This document shows positions 46,676 to 63,188 of a stretch of DNA of 64,000 nucleotides, one piece after another. How positions within the stretch are numbered: position 1 is the first letter of the stretch; the number at the start of each line of letters is the position of its first letter. The translations under genes were made by a program, and so were the position numbers. The notes beneath the pieces were generated by a model. That model was not told the origin of the DNA. It worked only from the letters and a program-made list of their open reading frames with translations, and did no database searches. Source of the stretch: a virus (Duplodnaviria > Caudoviricetes); the IMG/VR virus record IMGVR_UViG_3300017766_003039, positions 2,985 through 66,984 of that record, one strand, 5' to 3'.

Positions 46676-46820
46676 GGTGTGACCGTATGCCGCATTGACG
46701 TTGATTTCATTGGCTCTTTTGGCCTGCGTCATCGTGCCACATGTCGGAGCATTAAACAACGTGCGATGGACCGGACACCCGGAAAACCTCCGGGCCGCAA
46801 CCGCTATGGAGCATCACCAA

Positions 46821-48389
46821 ATGACAAAGAGCCAAGAGATAGCAGCCGACATCGCGGCGCTATTGCGCGCCCGTAATCCGTTGCTCTGGATCGTATCCAG
46901 GGAAGAGGCCCGCGCCGAGTCGCACATCTTCGAAGCGGCCGCGAGCGCAGGCTACATCGCCCGAGCTTGGGACGTTGCCCAGGGAGTCACGGACCTCGCC
47001 GGAACCGTTCAGCCTATCGGTTCCGCCGATCCGGCCGACACGCTGCGAGCGATTGCCGAACGCTCCCAGGCCCAGCGGGGCGAACGCGGAGTCTGGATTA
47101 TGCGTGACCTCCCCGTTTGGCTTTCCGGCATCACAGGGGCCGCGACTTGCCGCCAGCTTCGCAATCTGGCGCGCACCCTGCCATCCGCTCCCAGGGAGAG
47201 CGCCCAAGCGGTAATTATCCTCTCACCCACGGCCGACATTCCCCCGGAATTGTCCGGTCATGCCACGGTCATCGAATGGGCAATGCCCGACCGCGAGGAA
47301 ATCGCCGCCATTCTGGACGCCGCTATCGCTGGCCTGCCGGACGACATGAAAGCCACCGCCGCCCCCAATGGCACCAGGGACGCCGCCATTGATGCGGCCG
47401 TGGGACTGTCAGGTGAAGAGGCCGCCGCTTGCTACGCCCGCTCCCTGGTGCAGCTACGCCGCATTGAGCCCGCCACCGTGGCCAAGGAGAAAAAGCGCGT
47501 TATCGCCAGGGAGCGAGTGCTGGAATGGCATGACCCCATCCCCGGCGGCTTGGATGCAGTCGGGGGCTTGGATCAACTCAAGGCATGGCTAGCTAGCCGC
47601 AAAAACGCCTATTCCCCCGCCGCCCGCGAGTATGGGCTGCCCGCCCCCAAAGGCGCACTTCTGGTAGGCATCCCCGGCTGCGGTAAAAGCCTTACCGCGA
47701 AAGCCATCGCAACGGCTTGGGGAATTCCCCTTCTGCGGCTCGACCTCGGCGCGCTCAAATCGAAGTTTGTCGGAGAGAGCGAAGGCAATCTCCGCCGCGC
47801 GTTCAGTGTCGTCAAAGCCCTCGGCCGTTGCGTGCTTTGGGTTGACGAGATCGAAAAGGCACTCGCAGGAGCCACCCAGGGAGGCGCGGACGGTGGCGTA
47901 TCGTCCGACGCCCTCGGCACGCTTCTGTCATGGATGCAGGAGCAGGAAGGCGCTTTTGTCATCGCCACCGCCAACGACGTTAGCAGCCTCCCGCCCGAGC
48001 TACTGCGGAAAGGCCGCTTTGATGAAGTGTTCTGGATCGACCTCCCCACCTACGCCGAGCGCACGGAAATCATGGCCGCCGCCCTCAAGAGCCACGGCCG
48101 CACGGTCGCAGGCATCGACCTTGGAGCCATCGCCGCCAAGTGTGAGGAATTCACGGGCAGCGAAGTTGCCGCCCTCGTTCCCGATGCACTCTATGCAGGC
48201 TTTGCCGACAACGGCCGAGCCATCACCACGGCCGACCTAATGGCAGCGGCCGCGACGGTCACGCCGCTCGCCAAGACCGCCGCCGAGAAAATCACCAAGC
48301 TTCGGCAATGGGCAGTCGGCCGCGCCCGCTCAGCTACCACCAGCGACGCGGCATCCGGTCGCAGCGCAGCCCGCCAACTTGATCTGTAG
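46821..48389 (+). CDS. AAA+ ATPase (Ycf46-like; degenerate N-terminal plus active C-terminal AAA domain)
   Basis: GIPGCGKSL Walker A, VLWVDEIEK Walker B, ATAN sensor-1, LLRKGRFDE arginine finger. Confidence 0.93.
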   Translation: MTKSQEIAADIAALLRARNPLLWIVSREEARAESHIFEAAASAGYIARAWDVAQGVTDLAGTVQPIGSADPADTLRAIAERSQAQRGERGVWIMRDLPVWLSGITGAATCRQLRNLARTLPSAPRESAQAVIILSPTADIPPELSGHATVIEWAMPDREEIAAILDAAIAGLPDDMKATAAPNGTRDAAIDAAVGLSGEEAAACYARSLVQLRRIEPATVAKEKKRVIARERVLEWHDPIPGGLDAVGGLDQLKAWLASRKNAYSPAAREYGLPAPKGALLVGIPGCGKSLTAKAIATAWGIPLLRLDLGALKSKFVGESEGNLRRAFSVVKALGRCVLWVDEIEKALAGATQGGADGGVSSDALGTLLSWMQEQEGAFVIATANDVSSLPPELLRKGRFDEVFWIDLPTYAERTEIMAAALKSHGRTVAGIDLGAIAAKCEEFTGSEVAALVPDALYAGFADNGRAITTADLMAAAATVTPLAKTAAEKITKLRQWAVGRARSATTSDAASGRSAARQLDL

Positions 48390-56407: not shown

Positions 56408-56441
56408 AAGAAAAGGGGCGAGAGCTCGCGACCCTCGCCCC
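56408..56441 (-). terminator. Intrinsic terminator for the - strand replication block
   Basis: GGGGCGAG/CTCGCCCC stem followed by TTTTCTT on the - strand. Confidence 0.8.
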
Positions 56442-56501: not shown

Positions 56502-56891
56502 TCACCCCTTGCGGGCGAGTTCGAAATACTCAGCGGTCAACCGTGCGGCTTCCTTCTGACTAAGCGGCTTCTTTGGCGTCCGCCCATGCGGACAGATCAT
56601 GCGGACCTCGGGCTTGTCCGGCGTAGCCCGCGCCAACGATCCGAACAGCCGGCAAATAAACGGCCGCTTTTCGTGGATGCCGCAGTTGCCCTTGGCCGAA
56701 TGCGGACACGTTGGCGACATCTGGAGAGAGAAGCCGTCACCCAGCGCCACCATCGGAATCGGCCCCATTGCCGGCGCCTCCAGCCCTGACAGCACAGGGA
56801 TGCCGGCACCACAGCAGTCTGTGCAGCCAGGAATGCAATCAACGGCCGGGATACGCCTATACAGGGCCTCTAGCTTATCCCGCGCGGTCAT
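56502..56891 (-). CDS. YkgJ-like cysteine-cluster protein
   Basis: CIPGCTDCCG...CPH...CGIHEKRPFICRLFG...CPH. Confidence 0.85.
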   Translation of the reverse strand: MTARDKLEALYRRIPAVDCIPGCTDCCGAGIPVLSGLEAPAMGPIPMVALGDGFSLQMSPTCPHSAKGNCGIHEKRPFICRLFGSLARATPDKPEVRMICPHGRTPKKPLSQKEAARLTAEYFELARKG

Positions 56892-57736
56892 GCCTCAGCC
56901 TGCGATTCGTCGCCTTCCGGCACCATGTCCCAGCCCGGATCCTCGGGAACGTCTGTGATCGGCCCAGGCGGTCCATTGTGCCCGGAATTATCGCGCCGCT
57001 GGGCCGGTTTTTCTGCCCGTGGCGGCATCCCGATATGAGCGGCGTCCGGCGCCGGCACCAGGACAGGCGGCCTATTCTCCAGCGCAGCCAGTTGCTCCTC
57101 AATAGCGTTTGCCCGGTCATACTGCCCAAGGCGCCTGTACGAGGCTATAGACGATGCCAGCCGGGTCTCCCGAGTTTCCTGCCCAGGCTGGGCCCGCTCC
57201 ACGATCCCGTGCTTTGCCCGCCATGCTGCGATCATTTCAGCCGGCGCCAAGTGCGGCCCGGGATCCTCCGGCCTGTTGCCCTCGGTCTCCTTGTGCCACC
57301 AGCCGCCGCGGCGATACCTATCCAGACGCCCGCGCCAGTCCTGCGAGCGCACCGGCGCCGGCGAACTCGAGCCCGCCACAGCCACAGGCTCCCCGCCATT
57401 GTAAAAGTCCTCGATCACCTTCCGCACCGTCGCCGGCCGAGTGAACCAGTCTAGGTTCGCCTTGAATTGCTTGTGCCCATCGCGGGGCGAGACGCGACCC
57501 ATGCAGAAGTCGCTGCGCTCGATCTTTTCAAGCATCGCCTGAAACCCCGGCACCCCGCCGTAGTCCTTCACCGCCCGCTTGAGCGCCGAGCGCCGGCCAG
57601 TGTCGAGAACCTTGGCCTCTTGCCACCCGTTCTTTTTGGCAAAGCGATTCCACAGGTCGTAACAGGACTGAACCGGGGCCGACGGCGCGTCCGCAAGCTC
57701 GCCATCGCTGAACAACGCAGGCTGAACAGCTTTCAT
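56888..57736 (-). CDS. Phage replication-initiator C-terminal-domain protein lacking the N-terminal HTH
   Basis: YDLWN...RRSALK...F..ML..IERSDF..G...FKANLDWF.RP....KV.E..Y. Confidence 0.7.
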   Translation of the reverse strand: MKAVQPALFSDGELADAPSAPVQSCYDLWNRFAKKNGWQEAKVLDTGRRSALKRAVKDYGGVPGFQAMLEKIERSDFCMGRVSPRDGHKQFKANLDWFTRPATVRKVIEDFYNGGEPVAVAGSSSPAPVRSQDWRGRLDRYRRGGWWHKETEGNRPEDPGPHLAPAEMIAAWRAKHGIVERAQPGQETRETRLASSIASYRRLGQYDRANAIEEQLAALENRPPVLVPAPDAAHIGMPPRAEKPAQRRDNSGHNGPPGPITDVPEDPGWDMVPEGDESQAEA

Positions 57737-58272
57737 TGAATATGCCGCCTGAATTTGCGTTTCTTAATGCCGGAGATTAACGCTGCCGTGACCCCATACT
57801 CGTCGGCAATATCCCACAGCTTGCGCTGATCGCTGCGGATACCCGGGATCGCCTCATCGGGAATTACTGTATTGGCGTGGCCATTCCCAAAAGGAGACCG
57901 ATGACGCCCCTTCGCCATTTTATCATCGACGTTGTCCTGATGCGTGCCGAGGCGAAAATGCAGGTCGTTCACGCAGCAAGTGACATCGCATTTATGAAGC
58001 ACTTGTTTGTTGGCCGGGATGGGGCCGTGCTTCTTAATCCAGATGAACCGATTGGCCCTCTTCAGCCGGCCTTTTTCAAATATTCTCGGATAGCCCTGCG
58101 CATCGACAGATCCCAGCCACAGCAGACACCCGCTGTTCGGCTCGGGCATCGTCCAATACTCGACCTTCTCTTGCCAAGTCGTATTGCGGCCAGTGTAACC
58201 CTTGATGATCCCAGGACCGAATGACCGACTTAACGATAGCGCCGGCTGCACGGCGGTCTTTGCCTTGGCCAT
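57733..58272 (-). CDS. HNH endonuclease
   Basis: EPNSGCLLWLG...ANR..WI.KHGPIP...VLHKCDVTCCVN..H..LGTHQDN..D. Confidence 0.92.
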   Translation of the reverse strand: MAKAKTAVQPALSLSRSFGPGIIKGYTGRNTTWQEKVEYWTMPEPNSGCLLWLGSVDAQGYPRIFEKGRLKRANRFIWIKKHGPIPANKQVLHKCDVTCCVNDLHFRLGTHQDNVDDKMAKGRHRSPFGNGHANTVIPDEAIPGIRSDQRKLWDIADEYGVTAALISGIKKRKFRRHIQ

Positions 58273-58541
58273 TAAGCCCTCGCCTCGATATGACGCCAGT
58301 GCGTAACGTCTTGGACCGGAAGATTACCGGCCTCGACAGATACCCAGCCGGCGCCGCATGAACCTTGCGGAGCGCCAAGCATACAATAGCGCTCCAATTC
58401 CCAGCGGCCGATTTCCTCGGTGCCGTCCTGGTAGCGAATTTCGACTGGCTCGCCGGTAGGTGGCGGGTAGGTCTTCGCCATCGTCATCGGCATCCAGCCG
58501 TCATGCGGCGGCGGGTCATCCGGTTGAAATATCGAGCCCAT
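58272..58541 (-). CDS. DUF551-like small protein
   Basis: GWMP...PPTGEPV...W...VTHWR. Confidence 0.65.
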   Translation of the reverse strand: MGSIFQPDDPPPHDGWMPMTMAKTYPPPTGEPVEIRYQDGTEEIGRWELERYCMLGAPQGSCGAGWVSVEAGNLPVQDVTHWRHIEARA

Positions 58542-58750
58542 CAGTAGCAGACCTCGCAAGTGCAGTGGTTCCGCTTCCCGCTTTCACAGCGGGCCGACGC
58601 ATCGTGGAACGGCGTGTTGCTCACCGCGGCGCCGTTCTTGTCGCAGGTCTCGCACTCGCCCAGCGGGGCCCGGTAGCGCCGCTTCGGGGACGGCTCTGCC
58701 TTCACCCGCTTGATCCTCGCCTGCGTCTGCCTCGCGTGATAGCCGGTCAT
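58541..58750 (-). CDS. Small zinc-binding protein
   Basis: CETCD...HDAS.RCESGKRNHCTCEVCY. Confidence 0.75.
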   Translation of the reverse strand: MTGYHARQTQARIKRVKAEPSPKRRYRAPLGECETCDKNGAAVSNTPFHDASARCESGKRNHCTCEVCY

Positions 58751-58965
58751 TGCATGGTTTCCTTCCGATCAGCATAAAGCCCGCGGATCATTCGACGCAT
58801 TGCAATCCCTGCGCACCCACCGCCGATCAAGGCGCCCCCCAAATACCAGAGCGGCAGCCATATCAAAGCCACGCCAAGCCCCGTGCAAATCACCCCTGCC
58901 GCCAGTACCGGCCATGCCGCCCAGCCCGGAATATCTTGGCGGCTTTCAATTTCCTTGTCCGTCAC
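58747..58965 (-). CDS. Small two-helix membrane protein
   Basis: GTG after GGGAGG; two hydrophobic segments. Confidence 0.6.
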   Translation of the reverse strand: MTDKEIESRQDIPGWAAWPVLAAGVICTGLGVALIWLPLWYLGGALIGGGCAGIAMRRMIRGLYADRKETMQ

Positions 58966-59002
58966 CCGCCCCACCCTCCCTAGTTGCTCGCGGCCTTCGC
59001 CG

Positions 59003-59491
59003 TCAGAAGTCGCCATCAGCGCATTGCAGGCAGATCAGTCCTTCGCTGCGCCACATATCGACCACGCGCTTACGATCCTCGATCGCCATCACGGGGTTGA
59101 ACCCGTCGGCCCGGATTTGCTCCAGAATCTTGCGCTTGAGCGTATCATCGTCCGCATGCAGATCGTCGGGCCGCATGTAGAGACGCGACGCTGAGACCAT
59201 CGGCAGATGGACATTCACCCAGATCCTCGTGGCGTCCCTAGTGCGCTCAGGGCGCCCAGTGCAGAAGATCAACTGATGATCTGCCAATGCCAGCGCCTCG
59301 ATCAGATTCACCACCGGCAGGATCGGCGCATCACCACCGCACGCTGCGAAGAACGAATCCCAGTCCTTCTTGAAGGTCCGCGCCACCTCCCGATCCTCAT
59401 CTCGATCGCTGCCAGTTTGCGGCGGCGTGATGAAGTGAAGCCGGTGCGTGCAATCCGCCAGCGTGCCGTCGATGTCTACGATGATGTCCAC
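59003..59491 (-). CDS. HAD-superfamily phosphatase (T4 PNKP 3'-phosphatase-like)
   Basis: IVDIDGTLAD, CTGRPE, LYMRP..D, K, IEDR..VV.MWR. Confidence 0.92.
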   Translation of the reverse strand: MDIIVDIDGTLADCTHRLHFITPPQTGSDRDEDREVARTFKKDWDSFFAACGGDAPILPVVNLIEALALADHQLIFCTGRPERTRDATRIWVNVHLPMVSASRLYMRPDDLHADDDTLKRKILEQIRADGFNPVMAIEDRKRVVDMWRSEGLICLQCADGDF

Positions 59492-59494
59492 GAC

Positions 59495-59791
59495 TCACTC
59501 CGGATTTTGAATGTGAGCTTTGATCGCTCGTAAGTCGGTGTCGATCTCGCCCTGCCGCGCCTTCTCCAAGATACCGGCGCAGCGATTGCGCTCCTCAGCA
59601 GCGCCGCACCGCCAGCCGATCTCGAACAGCGCCCACAGCGAACCGTCGACATGCTCCGGGAAAGCGGCCCACTTCTTAGAATTGGCGTAGCTTTCGGACT
59701 GCTTGAATTGCTCCCACGCCACCATCAGCGGAGACGCCGGATCCACAGGAGCCGACACGCCACCGGATTCCAGCTTCGATAGATCAACCAT
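59495..59791 (-). CDS. Hypothetical protein
   Basis: Coupled ORF with typical codon usage. Confidence 0.65.
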   Translation of the reverse strand: MVDLSKLESGGVSAPVDPASPLMVAWEQFKQSESYANSKKWAAFPEHVDGSLWALFEIGWRCGAAEERNRCAGILEKARQGEIDTDLRAIKAHIQNPE

Positions 59792-60236
59792 TTCCGCCTC
59801 CCTTGCTCAATTGCTTGGCGAAGAAATCCTCAACAGATTTTCCGCCTTCTTCCCGGTACATCCGCGCGTATTCCTTCACCTTGTCGCAGCGGCGACACAT
59901 GAGGCGCGCAACCTCTCCTTGCTGAAGGGCTTTGGCTCTCCTGTGCTCCCATTGACCGCAAGAGCAACGAACCACCCAGCGCGATTTGCCCACAGCCAGC
60001 CCCTTTACGGTCAGCCGCCCAAATATTTTCCCAACAAGTGCTCTCGCCAGAACTTGGGTCTCTGGTGCAGTCGACCTGATATCCCTCATAGGCAGCGGCA
60101 CATCGGTCGAGACATGATGGGGCGCCGGAGCCATGGTCGGCTCGTAATGCACACCCTTCGACATGACGCGCGCAGCAGTTTGATTCTGCGGAGTGGCGCT
60201 CACAACCCTGTTAAATTGATCGGCCTTGTCTTTCAT
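59784..60236 (-). CDS. Protein with the GxxFGRLTV...CSCG zinc domain seen at the N-terminus of AP2/HNH endonucleases; no nuclease domain
   Basis: LVGKIFGRLTV...RWVVRCSCG...CRRC. Confidence 0.65.
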   Translation of the reverse strand: MKDKADQFNRVVSATPQNQTAARVMSKGVHYEPTMAPAPHHVSTDVPLPMRDIRSTAPETQVLARALVGKIFGRLTVKGLAVGKSRWVVRCSCGQWEHRRAKALQQGEVARLMCRRCDKVKEYARMYREEGGKSVEDFFAKQLSKGGGNG

Positions 60237-60763
60237 GCGGCCACCTTAGCAAGTGCTTCCAATTCCTTGCGATACCGATCAGCCTTCGCCGTGTTCCCCA
60301 CTTTCTCGAAACTGGCGATCATGCTCTTGAGCCTTGTTGGCAAATCCTCAGAAGGTTCAATTATGGTTCCTAAGGTTTCCGTGTCCCGTTTTTGGGACCC
60401 TTTCGAGGGAAAAACGGGACTCTTAGGCGGGAGAATTGGTACCGTTTGGCCGGAAAGAGTCCCGTTCGCGGTACCGTTTAACGATCCCGATTTGGGGACT
60501 GTTATGTGGAAAACTTTGACCTGCTTGGTGCGACCCTTCCGCCGGCCCGTGTCCCGCAGAAACCCCTTCGCCACCAATGCTTGAATTGCCGACAGGATGG
60601 TTTTGCGATCAAGCCCCGTCATCTCATGCAACTGCCGCACGGACGGGTAGGTGTCGCCGCCTTTCTTGTCGTTGGCGCAGTTAGCGAGCGCGACCAAGAC
60701 AAACCTGGCGGAGGCTGGGATGGAGTTCTGTTTGAAGGCCCAAGTTAGGGCGGAATTTGACAA
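60233..60763 (-). CDS. Replication-initiator-like protein, N-terminal winged HTH (HTH_36-like)
   Basis: SALTWAFKQ...ARFVLVALANCAN...TYPSVRQL.EMTGL.RKTI..AI..L...GFL; start TTG at 60763 or 60778. Confidence 0.85.
   Translation of the reverse strand: MSNSALTWAFKQNSIPASARFVLVALANCANDKKGGDTYPSVRQLHEMTGLDRKTILSAIQALVAKGFLRDTGRRKGRTKQVKVFHITVPKSGSLNGTANGTLSGQTVPILPPKSPVFPSKGSQKRDTETLGTIIEPSEDLPTRLKSMIASFEKVGNTAKADRYRKELEALAKVAA
60383..60499. other. Iteron-like cluster, candidate replication origin inside the initiator gene
   Basis: Repeats of T[CA]CCGTT[TC]; perfect inverted pair GTCCCGTTTT (60383) / AAAACGGGAC (60411). Confidence 0.6.
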
Positions 60764-60776
60764 TGGAGACCCTAGC

Positions 60777-60863
60777 AAAAAGTGGGTGCGTAATCCGCCC
60801 GCGCTTTGGGCTAGGGACCAAAGAGCAGACGGCGGAAACAGGAGCTACCTGCTGTCCGCACCC
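60777..60863 (-). ncRNA. Structured leader/ncRNA (C4/CI-antisense-like) ending in a U-tract just before the initiator gene
   Basis: GGGTGCG/CGCACCC closing stem enclosing AGCAGG-TAGCT-CCTGTT and TCCGCC..CTTTGG/CCAAAG..GGCGGA stems, then ACTTTTT. Confidence 0.5.
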
Positions 60864-61935: not shown

Positions 61936-62964
61936 TCAGGAGACGTCTGAGAACAGCGCACCCTGCCGCTCATCAGCACGCACGCCATTGTTGTCGAAGT
62001 TCTCAAATGCGGGGATCAATTCGTAATAGCGACGCACGGCCCATTTCTGGAATTCCCAGATCGGCTTGTGCGCAACCCGACCGTTGTAGCCACCGGCTGG
62101 CAAGTGCCTGAAGCGATCACCATAGATCATCGGGAACGGCCGAATGCCGCGGTCAACCATCTTGTGGAAGCGATACAACACCCGCTCCCAAGTCTCGCGC
62201 TTATCGTAGCCGACCAGCATGTAGGCCATGATGTGCCCAGGTGGAATGCCGGCACGCTCGAGACGATCGACGCCAGTGAAGAAGCGCCCTTCATCCCCGA
62301 CGTTATCCCACGCGGTATAAATCCGGCGGCTCTTGAAGGCATCATCGTAGTAGGGCAACGACGCCAGCACCTTGGCACTTTCATCGTCGATTAGCCGCAC
62401 ATTGATCCCCTGATTCAGGCAGACCTTGAACTTGCCCGTGAGTATTTCATCAACACGCGCCTCCCAATCTTCCCGAGGCTGCCCAAAGAAATCGTTATCG
62501 AGAAGATGCAGATGCTTTGGATAGTCACCGCCGCGCCAGATGGTGGCCACGGTGTTCACAGAACGAGGCTTGCCCTCTTTCTTGGGAACGACACAAAACC
62601 CACACTTCAAACGACAACCACGCTGCGTGAATCCAATCGACGCATCGAAGCGCGGATAGATCGAATAGTCGTAGTGCTCGTATTCATCGACACCCAGGAA
62701 TTCCTCAACCGTGGTCAAGCTCCCAAGGTCATGCGTGCCACCCAAGATGGCATCGGGCCATTGGGAGCGGAACTCGTGGACGCGATCGACGCTTACAGAA
62801 AAGATGGCCGAACCATAGACCCGGTCGTAGTCGCCCTCTTCCAATTCTCGCGCCACCGACTTTGTAAAATGGATCGAGTCCCCCCGCGTGCCGTGCCAGT
62901 GGGCGAGTTTCATCAGCGCCAAATTCGGCAGCTTTCCGTCGATATGGGTAAGGCGGACTCTCAC
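61936..62964 (-). CDS. Radical SAM protein
   Basis: GTG start MRVRLTHIDGKLPNLALMKLA; TQRGCRLKCGFCVVP (CxxxCxxC); LLDNDF. Confidence 0.9.
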   Translation of the reverse strand: MRVRLTHIDGKLPNLALMKLAHWHGTRGDSIHFTKSVARELEEGDYDRVYGSAIFSVSVDRVHEFRSQWPDAILGGTHDLGSLTTVEEFLGVDEYEHYDYSIYPRFDASIGFTQRGCRLKCGFCVVPKKEGKPRSVNTVATIWRGGDYPKHLHLLDNDFFGQPREDWEARVDEILTGKFKVCLNQGINVRLIDDESAKVLASLPYYDDAFKSRRIYTAWDNVGDEGRFFTGVDRLERAGIPPGHIMAYMLVGYDKRETWERVLYRFHKMVDRGIRPFPMIYGDRFRHLPAGGYNGRVAHKPIWEFQKWAVRRYYELIPAFENFDNNGVRADERQGALFSDVS

Positions 62965-63188
62965 TGAACACTCTTTCGAAACGGCAGTGCATAAGCCCAC
63001 ACCGCGTCGCGCAACACTTGGGCTATCGGCAATTTCTTCACCCGCGCCACATGCTCCAGGCACGCCCAGTCGCCCACCGGGAATGAGCCCGTAATGCGCA
63101 CCATCCCCGGCGTGGTCGCGGCCCGCGTGCCCTTCGTCGACATCTTCGAACCGCGGGCCGTCTTGCGGCGGATCTTGTGCGCTGTCAC
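62961..63188 (-). CDS. Small ribbon-helix-helix-like protein
   Basis: VRITGSFPVGDWACLEHVARVKKLPIAQVLRDAV. Confidence 0.6.
   Translation of the reverse strand: MTAHKIRRKTARGSKMSTKGTRAATTPGMVRITGSFPVGDWACLEHVARVKKLPIAQVLRDAVWAYALPFRKSVQ

Follow-up and report, generated by a model that had tools for sequence, protein, structure and literature searches.

How does a phage begin to replicate its DNA when the two halves of an initiator lie in separate genes, and what is to be made of a short helical hairpin that recurs in both of the encoded proteins? The question is raised by IMG/VR record IMGVR_UViG_3300017766_003039, the 66,984-bp genome of an uncultured phage of the Caudoviricetes that is rated complete by CheckV, and of which positions 2985–66984, a stretch of 64,000 nucleotides, are referred to here as the window and supply the coordinates used below. 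Two genes on the minus strand are at issue: gene A (60233–60763), which encodes a protein with a winged helix-turn-helix (HTH), a disordered linker, and a C-terminal hairpin, and gene B (56888–57736), which encodes a 282-residue protein with a helical domain of the C-terminal initiator type, a tryptophan-rich segment, a hairpin, and an acidic tail. The best explanation that we can offer for this arrangement is an initiator of the lambda O / P22 gp18 type whose two functional halves, one for origin binding and one for recruitment, would be made as separate polypeptides, and the sections of evidence that lead to it are the domain content of the two proteins, the existence of fused relatives, the homology of the hairpins, and a candidate origin inside gene A.

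The longest open reading frame (ORF) of gene A extends over 60233–60778 (181 amino acids), with homologs beginning at the TTG codon at 60763. The Pfam family HTH_36 (PF13730) matches residues 20–74 with an E value of 1.3e-10 and 41.4 bits against a cut-off of 25, and a profile search of the whole record finds no other copy of this domain. In the AlphaFold model, a winged HTH occupies residues 6–92 (60503–60763, minus strand; also delimited by Pfam and by alignment to the PseuP_224 ORF described below), residues 93–145 are disordered, and helices at 146–160 and 163–180 form the C-terminal hairpin (residues 146–180; 60239–60343, minus strand), with a block-mean predicted local distance difference test (pLDDT) score of about 73–91. 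About ten PHROG families of the "replication initiation / O-like" kind match A over its first 100 residues or so only, and do so with the N-terminal part of profiles that are some 200–455 positions long; families 6643, 1032, 270, 391, and 345 match at E values of 1e-20 to 1e-9, and the match is confined to the N-terminal part of A for 6643, 1032, 270, 345, and 19658. A DnaD_N match is weak (E 0.0015, 19 bits, under the cut-off of 27), and the DnaD-like PHROG 186 also matches. By its N-terminal domain, then, A belongs on sequence grounds to the broad O-like (lambda O / P22 gp18) family. The alignment of A homologs shows a common winged HTH and a linker that ends in ...SQKRDTEP...IEP, beyond which the C-terminal modules differ between members; the hairpin of A begins exactly where the C-terminal domains of its relatives begin, and A together with five close clusters has the hairpin alone after the linker. 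The recruitment domain that O-like initiators carry at the C-terminus of the same chain is thus absent from A, which ends in the 35-residue hairpin. Among the hairpin-ending homologs of this short type (n = 6), which are 58–85% identical overall, 27 of 33 hairpin positions are invariant as against a mean column identity of 57%. One further A-type homolog, at L019 792–1512, has a variant hairpin (…AKAAKYRKELELL) and seems to be split over two frames, by an assembly error or a frameshift.

Gene B presents the complementary picture. Its residues 16–113 (57398–57691, minus strand; block-mean pLDDT mostly 89–95, falling once to 79) match PHROG initiator families at their C-terminal ends, namely 345 (positions 196–290 of 297), 19658 (161–250 of 283), 10469, and 5810, of which 10469 is described as "DnaD-like helicase loader" (E 8e-10). 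The tryptophan-rich segment (residues 133–176; 57209–57340, minus strand), identified from the family alignment and from profile matches that reach to about residue 176, is missing from some members of the B family and also follows the C-terminal domain in many fused forms (e.g., the P0120, P0121, and P0133 sequences). The part that is best conserved in the family is the hairpin with the RPPVLVPAPD stretch (residues 186–232; 57041–57181, minus strand), in which AlphaFold places helices at 189–202 and 206–219 as a separate unit (block-mean pLDDT 91–94) and in which R192, A209, N210, E213, L216, and A217 are invariant; the RPPVLVPAPD motif itself stands immediately past the hairpin, at 57041–57075. 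The protein closes with an acidic, aromatic tail, ITDV...W..IPEGD (56891–56965, minus strand), in which P273, E274, and G275 vary little or not at all. The window protein is 34–80% identical over its full length to the members of 48 other clusters (49 in all), which have the same length and architecture, and it has every mark of the family: the initiator-type C domain at its N-terminus, the hairpin sequence RL..IASY.K.G...RAN..EE.LAAL, RPPVLVPAPD, the IPEGD tail, and no DNA-binding domain.

No Pfam family was matched by B, no NCBIfam family by B or by the fused forms, and no PDB entry by a sequence profile search with the B domain or by Foldseek with B (E ≤ 0.001); in a wider structure search with VIA-align the best Z score was 4.8, and TPR-like hairpins, the UvrB hairpin, the Lon lid, and SPP1 G39P all fell within noise. 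The B domain does not match Phg_2220_C (PF09524), to which a protein-atlas score of 0.88 was the sole lead, the profile being unmatched at E ≤ 10 across the whole record and in the Pfam scan. Scans of viral contigs and of genome contigs with the B family likewise returned no relatives.

The argument that A and B are halves of one initiator comes from proteins in which both are joined. A profile built from 26 B homologs and run against 1.84 billion representative proteins (E ≤ 0.001) found the B domain in 11,926 protein clusters. The top list contained 142 new proteins, of which 86 have an N-terminal extension of at least 90 amino acids ahead of the domain (median length 311), 21 consist of the domain only, and 34 are of the B type; the extensions of the fused forms comprise DUF1376, HTH_36, or other winged-helix-like domains, and 12 top representatives, recognized with a profile of the A N-terminal domain, join an A-type HTH to the B domain. 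The same relation is seen in PHROG families 345 and 19658, whose N-terminal part is matched by A and whose C-terminal part is matched by B, and it can be followed residue by residue in a cultured Pseudomonas phage, where the 250-residue PseuP_224 ORF aligns with A over residues 24–93 (36% identity, E 2e-8) and with residues 17–114 of B over residues 151–250 (E 6e-12), colinear in the order A then B, in a gene that overlaps the start of dnaB. This ORF (L015 2551–3303; OP795451.1 12780–13532) is annotated over its last 76 codons only, as "primosomal protein I", an annotation of 76 amino acids that is probably truncated. As for the domain-only proteins, the neighbor of one of them, P0120, is an unannotated 439-residue protein. 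Read against the many fused homologs, these sequence comparisons place the DNA-binding half and the C-terminal half in two genes here. The preliminary description of this DNA, made from the letters alone, had given A an N-terminal winged HTH and no typical C-terminal domain, had given B an initiator C-terminal domain and no HTH, and had regarded the two as one initiator split into two genes; each of these statements stands, the first two on the HTH_36 match, the PHROG matches limited to the N-terminal part of A, and the match of B residues 16–113 to the ends of initiator families, and the third on the fused homologs and on the location of both halves in a single operon. In most of the relatives sampled, the B domain stands C-terminal to a DNA-binding domain on one chain.

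That A and B belong to one operon is clear from the common strand, the overlapping genes, and the single strong terminator after B. The minus-strand operon of tightly packed genes runs, within the window, from 63994 to an intrinsic terminator at 56441–56415 (11-pair stem with 8 G-C pairs, followed by a T tract), and terminator-like matches in the interval from A to B are short and weak only. Between the two genes lie seven others (57733–60236, minus strand; from ORF, Pfam, and PHROG scans), linked in a chain by overlapping start and stop codons. Recent gene decay or a frameshift as the source of the split can be excluded, because both architectures persist among widely diverged homologs, those of B reaching as low as 34% identity across 49 clusters and the short A homologs lying at 58–85% with a nearly invariant hairpin. 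The insertion of a homing endonuclease into one ancestral gene was also considered and rejected: the intervening block comprises 2.5–4.2 kb of varied genes, and neither half has a truncated remnant of the other.

What sets this system apart is the segment that the two proteins share. The preliminary description had pointed to a related stretch of 29 residues with 12 identities, and the resemblance holds: BLASTP of A residues 148–176 (60251–60337) with B residues 191–219 (57080–57166) gives 12/29 identities and 19/29 positives at E 3e-4; a B-hairpin profile finds A as its only other match (E 3e-5) among 1,622 six-frame ORFs from the window and three related loci and, among 2,431 ORFs from the whole record and six loci, finds A at 4.7e-5 and the A homolog of L007 at 2e-4; the reciprocal profile of the A hairpin matches 25 B-type proteins; and hhalign of the two hairpin families returns a probability of 93.8% (E 1.8e-7). 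In a search of 5.8 billion proteins with the hairpin alignment, B-type proteins and the short A family were the only matches, the next having an E value of 1. A helical hairpin is predicted by modeling in both proteins, and to judge from these scores the two are homologous and not a product of chance. The hairpin is the best-conserved region of the short A family as well as of the B family; A and B agree mainly in the hydrophobic core and at the turn and differ at several surface positions, some with a change of charge, and the surface residues N210, E213, and A217, which are invariant in B, are different in A. Within the superfamily of the C domain, no protein combines a DNA-binding N-terminal domain with the hairpin (0 of the 142 new representatives), a mutual exclusion that fits a hairpin replacing the covalent link.

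Who, then, is the partner of B? Ten B-bearing loci were examined, this genome included, and partners were sought within 7–10 kb of B (the P0002 contig has only 1.4 kb of upstream sequence). This genome and L007 have an A-type HTH protein with the hairpin, respectively 2.5 and 4.2 kb upstream of B; L005 has a short HTH_36 protein from which the hairpin is absent; and L001, L002, L003, L006, L011, L012, and L013 have neither an HTH_36 protein nor a second hairpin over that distance. The ORFs that adjoin B in L001, L002, L003, and L006 have no match to a Pfam or PHROG DNA-binding family. At L012 10819–11355, a 178-residue protein with the HTH of DnaA domain IV (Bac_DnaA_C, E 1.3e-8) begins right at B's stop codon and may be an alternative DNA-binding partner; a suspected hairpin in it ("IASY...G") was dismissed as not significant (-0.1 bits). 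B, hairpin included, is present at all ten loci and its HTH partner varies; it therefore belongs to the core genes of this phage group. Viewed from the other side, both A-type hairpin loci with enough context, those of this genome and of L007, also have B, and a metagenome scan for A-type hairpin proteins yielded just two contigs, of 1.5 and 3.2 kb, one of which seems to contain a frameshift; both are too short to show B.

The linker-coding part of gene A contains what is most likely, by analogy, the replication origin. Over 60380–60505, the motif AACGG[GT]AC occurs five times without mismatch, four times in one orientation and once inverted, along with degenerate copies, and half of the ten exact copies in the 66,984 bp of the record fall within 97 bp. 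The probable origin further comprises an 11-nt perfect inverted repeat (60383–60393 / 60410–60420) and adjoins a stretch, 60300–60450, whose G+C content of 47–49% is the minimum of the region. Between them, the copies are translated in each of the three frames and also in reverse, and they encode linker peptides (NGT, TVP, SPVF, KRD) that are conserved in distant family members; invariant peptide motifs would occur in this "disordered" linker because a DNA element acting in cis is conserved across distant initiator genes. Conservation at the DNA level is seen in a 48-nt block of the cluster that is 46/48 identical in the homologous gene of L017, whose protein is 38% identical and whose HTH-coding DNA is about 55–60% identical, and which is followed by a DnaC-like loader; the A homolog of L007 also has AACGG[GT]AC copies. 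The location has a precedent in ori-lambda, which lies inside gene O (PMC5509034). A DnaA-box-like 9-mer, TTTTCCACA (8/9 match, 60505–60513), abuts the repeat cluster; DnaA boxes show no enrichment in the window, with 14 found and 14 expected.

The statement in the preliminary description that no helicase or loader gene is visible can be extended from the window to the whole 66,984-bp record, in which the DnaB_C and IstB/DnaC profiles have zero matches, and PHROG scans of 46 record ORFs found neither a helicase nor a loader. A helicase or loader gene adjacent to the initiator, as is typical of O-like systems, is accordingly missing here, whereas among the relatives IstB follows P0058 and dnaB follows the PseuP_224 ORF. 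A 564-residue AAA+ ATPase is encoded at 46695–48389 (Pfam AAA, E 2.9e-29; phrog_8638, E 3e-175); it is the sole ATPase besides the packaging genes among the ORFs scanned, and a role in replication is possible.

Taken together, these data suggest a mechanism in which the winged-helix domain of A would bind the AACGG[GT]AC iterons within its own gene, B would supply the helical recruitment domain that A does not have, the hairpin would act as an association module, through B-B contacts throughout the phage group and through A-B contacts where the HTH protein has gained a copy, and the A-B complex would capture the replicative helicase, which would be that of the host because the phage encodes no DnaB, DnaC-like, or P-like gene. 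We consider this whole chain, from binding of the repeats to capture of the host helicase, to stand slightly below an even chance. That the B domain recruits the replicative helicase is suggested by its fusion behind DNA-binding domains and by the adjacency to dnaB in PseuP_224, and a hairpin-mediated contact of A with B is what the shared module points to. Carried one step further, the hairpin could be viewed as a transferable, noncovalent "linker": B would self-associate and recruit the helicase, exchangeable origin binders would plug into it, and in this lineage an HTH_36 initiator would have given up its recruitment domain in exchange for a copy of the B hairpin, a more tentative proposal that we rate perceptibly lower than the chain itself.

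Several points weigh against this account of association and recruitment. The hairpin of B is kept in eight related loci that have no second hairpin protein within 7–10 kb, and its role is therefore independent of A, with A-B pairing not its primary function; self-association or docking to a common partner is most likely the role in question. The preliminary interpretation, in which two halves would re-associate through the hairpin, is supported in part, for the split, which lies within one operon, and for the homologous, conserved hairpin; the hairpin of B cannot serve for pairing with A alone. Moreover, the A hairpins of this genome and L007 are nearly identical, their B hairpins differ from each other, one of them having a 2-residue insertion in the loop, and an invariant A hairpin of this kind is unlike simple pairwise co-evolution and would fit a conserved third partner; the co-occurrence of A and B is seen in two genomes only, the function of the B domain is derived only from fusion and neighborhood, the domain having no Pfam, NCBIfam, or PDB relative, and the origin is assigned by analogy.

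Some of these points lend weight to a reading in which each hairpin would dock separately on the same third protein, such as the host helicase or another conserved replication protein of the host, with no contact between A and B through the hairpins; A would then be a minimal but complete initiator, with B serving as a further recruiter or an adaptor. The very strong conservation of the hairpin in both families is what a motif fitting a conserved host surface would show, the B hairpin persists in the eight loci that lack an A-type partner, and there is no visible covariation of the A hairpin with its two known B partners; yet the residues common to A and B are mostly those of the core and turn, with N210, E213, and A217 differing in A, which argues against an identical binding surface, and the fused initiators do without the hairpin, which cannot then be a general helicase-binding element. 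On balance this reading appears unlikely, though it is the strongest of the competitors. A little less likely again is one in which the hairpin, of common source in both proteins, only self-dimerizes, so that A would pair with A on the iterons as the sole initiator and B would be an independent accessory of replication or recombination. It would account for the diversity of what accompanies B as a core gene (a hairpin-less HTH_36 protein in L005, the DnaA domain-IV protein in L012, and nothing recognizable in six others), and self-pairing is the simplest way of satisfying the usual need of an isolated two-helix hairpin for a partner helix pair. Against it, homologous dimerization hairpins are expected to cross-pair unless this is selected against, the hairpin of A stands in place of a recruitment domain that is exactly what the B domain provides, and members of the C-domain superfamily have either the hairpin or a DNA-binding domain, never both. 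Very improbable, finally, is the suggestion that A is a transcriptional regulator or that the arrangement is the decaying remnant of a broken initiator gene: HTH_36 and weak GntR-like matches also occur in regulators, and seven genes, homing-type nucleases included, separate A from B, but initiator families are the best matches of A, the iteron-like cluster within its gene is conserved as DNA, and the retention of both architectures over the divergence described above (B to 34% identity in 49 clusters, short A homologs at 58–85%) excludes recent decay. The initiator in two associating polypeptides remains the account that we prefer.

The surroundings of the two genes complete the description. 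All on the minus strand, the genes of the interval between A and B include, next to B, an HNH_3 endonuclease (57733–58272), then three small ORFs, a PNKP-type phosphatase domain with no kinase domain (59003–59491, E 4e-28), a 98-residue ORF, and a 150-residue phrog_18493 / HNH-like protein (59784–60236). Homing-type nucleases stand directly beside gene B in other loci too, HNH_3 upstream in L006 (8328–8762), as here, and downstream in L005 (11059–11541); a weak GIY-YIG match lies downstream of B in L011 (10879–11508), and in cluster P0022 an HNH domain is fused to the N-terminus of B. The last operon gene ahead of the terminator is a CxxCxxCC gene (56502–56891), and the same operon encodes a 375-residue radical-SAM-like protein at 61936–63063 (phrog_9298, E 2.5e-43). 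Elsewhere in the genome, Pfam and PHROG scans reveal a head, tail, and terminase block, a recombination module of exonuclease, RecT, and NinB, an endolysin, the AAA+ ATPase, and a DUF4942 methyltransferase.

If the proposal is true, origin specificity and the recruitment of the helicase would evolve and recombine independently of each other, as the two components of one initiator; a pair of modules made as separate proteins, each with a homologous docking hairpin, would illustrate how phages can uncouple the recognition of an origin from helicase recruitment and reshuffle the two among themselves. The B domain is, in addition, a very common initiator domain (some 11,900 clusters) that lacks a relative in the family and structure databases searched, and with no helicase or loader of the phage's own, B is a candidate for a new mode of host-helicase capture. 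The modularity of phage initiators is already known, and a natural two-piece case is what the present locus would add.

Among known systems, the closest is the lambda O / P22 gp18 type, with lambda P-DnaB and P22 gp12 as the downstream partners of such O-like initiators. The likeness extends to the N-terminal winged helix of the HTH_36 type, the repeat-bearing linker with a probable origin inside the initiator gene, and a separate, exchangeable C-terminal module that links to the helicase; the difference is that here this module would belong to another polypeptide, whose gene lies 2.5 kb downstream, that a homologous hairpin occurs on both polypeptides, and that the genome has no P-like, DnaC-like, or DnaB-like gene. 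Exchange of C-terminal modules between relatives is an established property of the modular O-like phage initiators (PMC5509034). The PseuP_224 initiator resembles A in its N-terminal part and the B domain in its C-terminal part, and its linker has the same IEPS end, but it is a single protein of 250 amino acids without the hairpin, and its gene overlaps the phage's own dnaB.

For homologous helical hairpins on two proteins, the UVR domains of UvrB and UvrC, which mediate the association of these proteins, offer a parallel by analogy only, in that a short hairpin is present on two proteins of one pathway; the pathway is a different one, the Pfam scan gave no UVR match, and the superposition of the B hairpin on the C-terminal hairpin of UvrB (38 residues, root-mean-square deviation 2.5 Å, Z 4.5) is within the noise expected of helical hairpins. 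The DnaD/DnaB proteins of Firmicutes and G38P/G39P of SPP1 likewise assign the binding of the origin and the delivery of the helicase to different small helical proteins; here no Pfam DnaB_2 or DnaD match rises above threshold and B resembles G39P only weakly in structure (Z 4.2), and whereas we know of no hairpin shared between the partners in either of those systems, the present pair would join its two halves through one.

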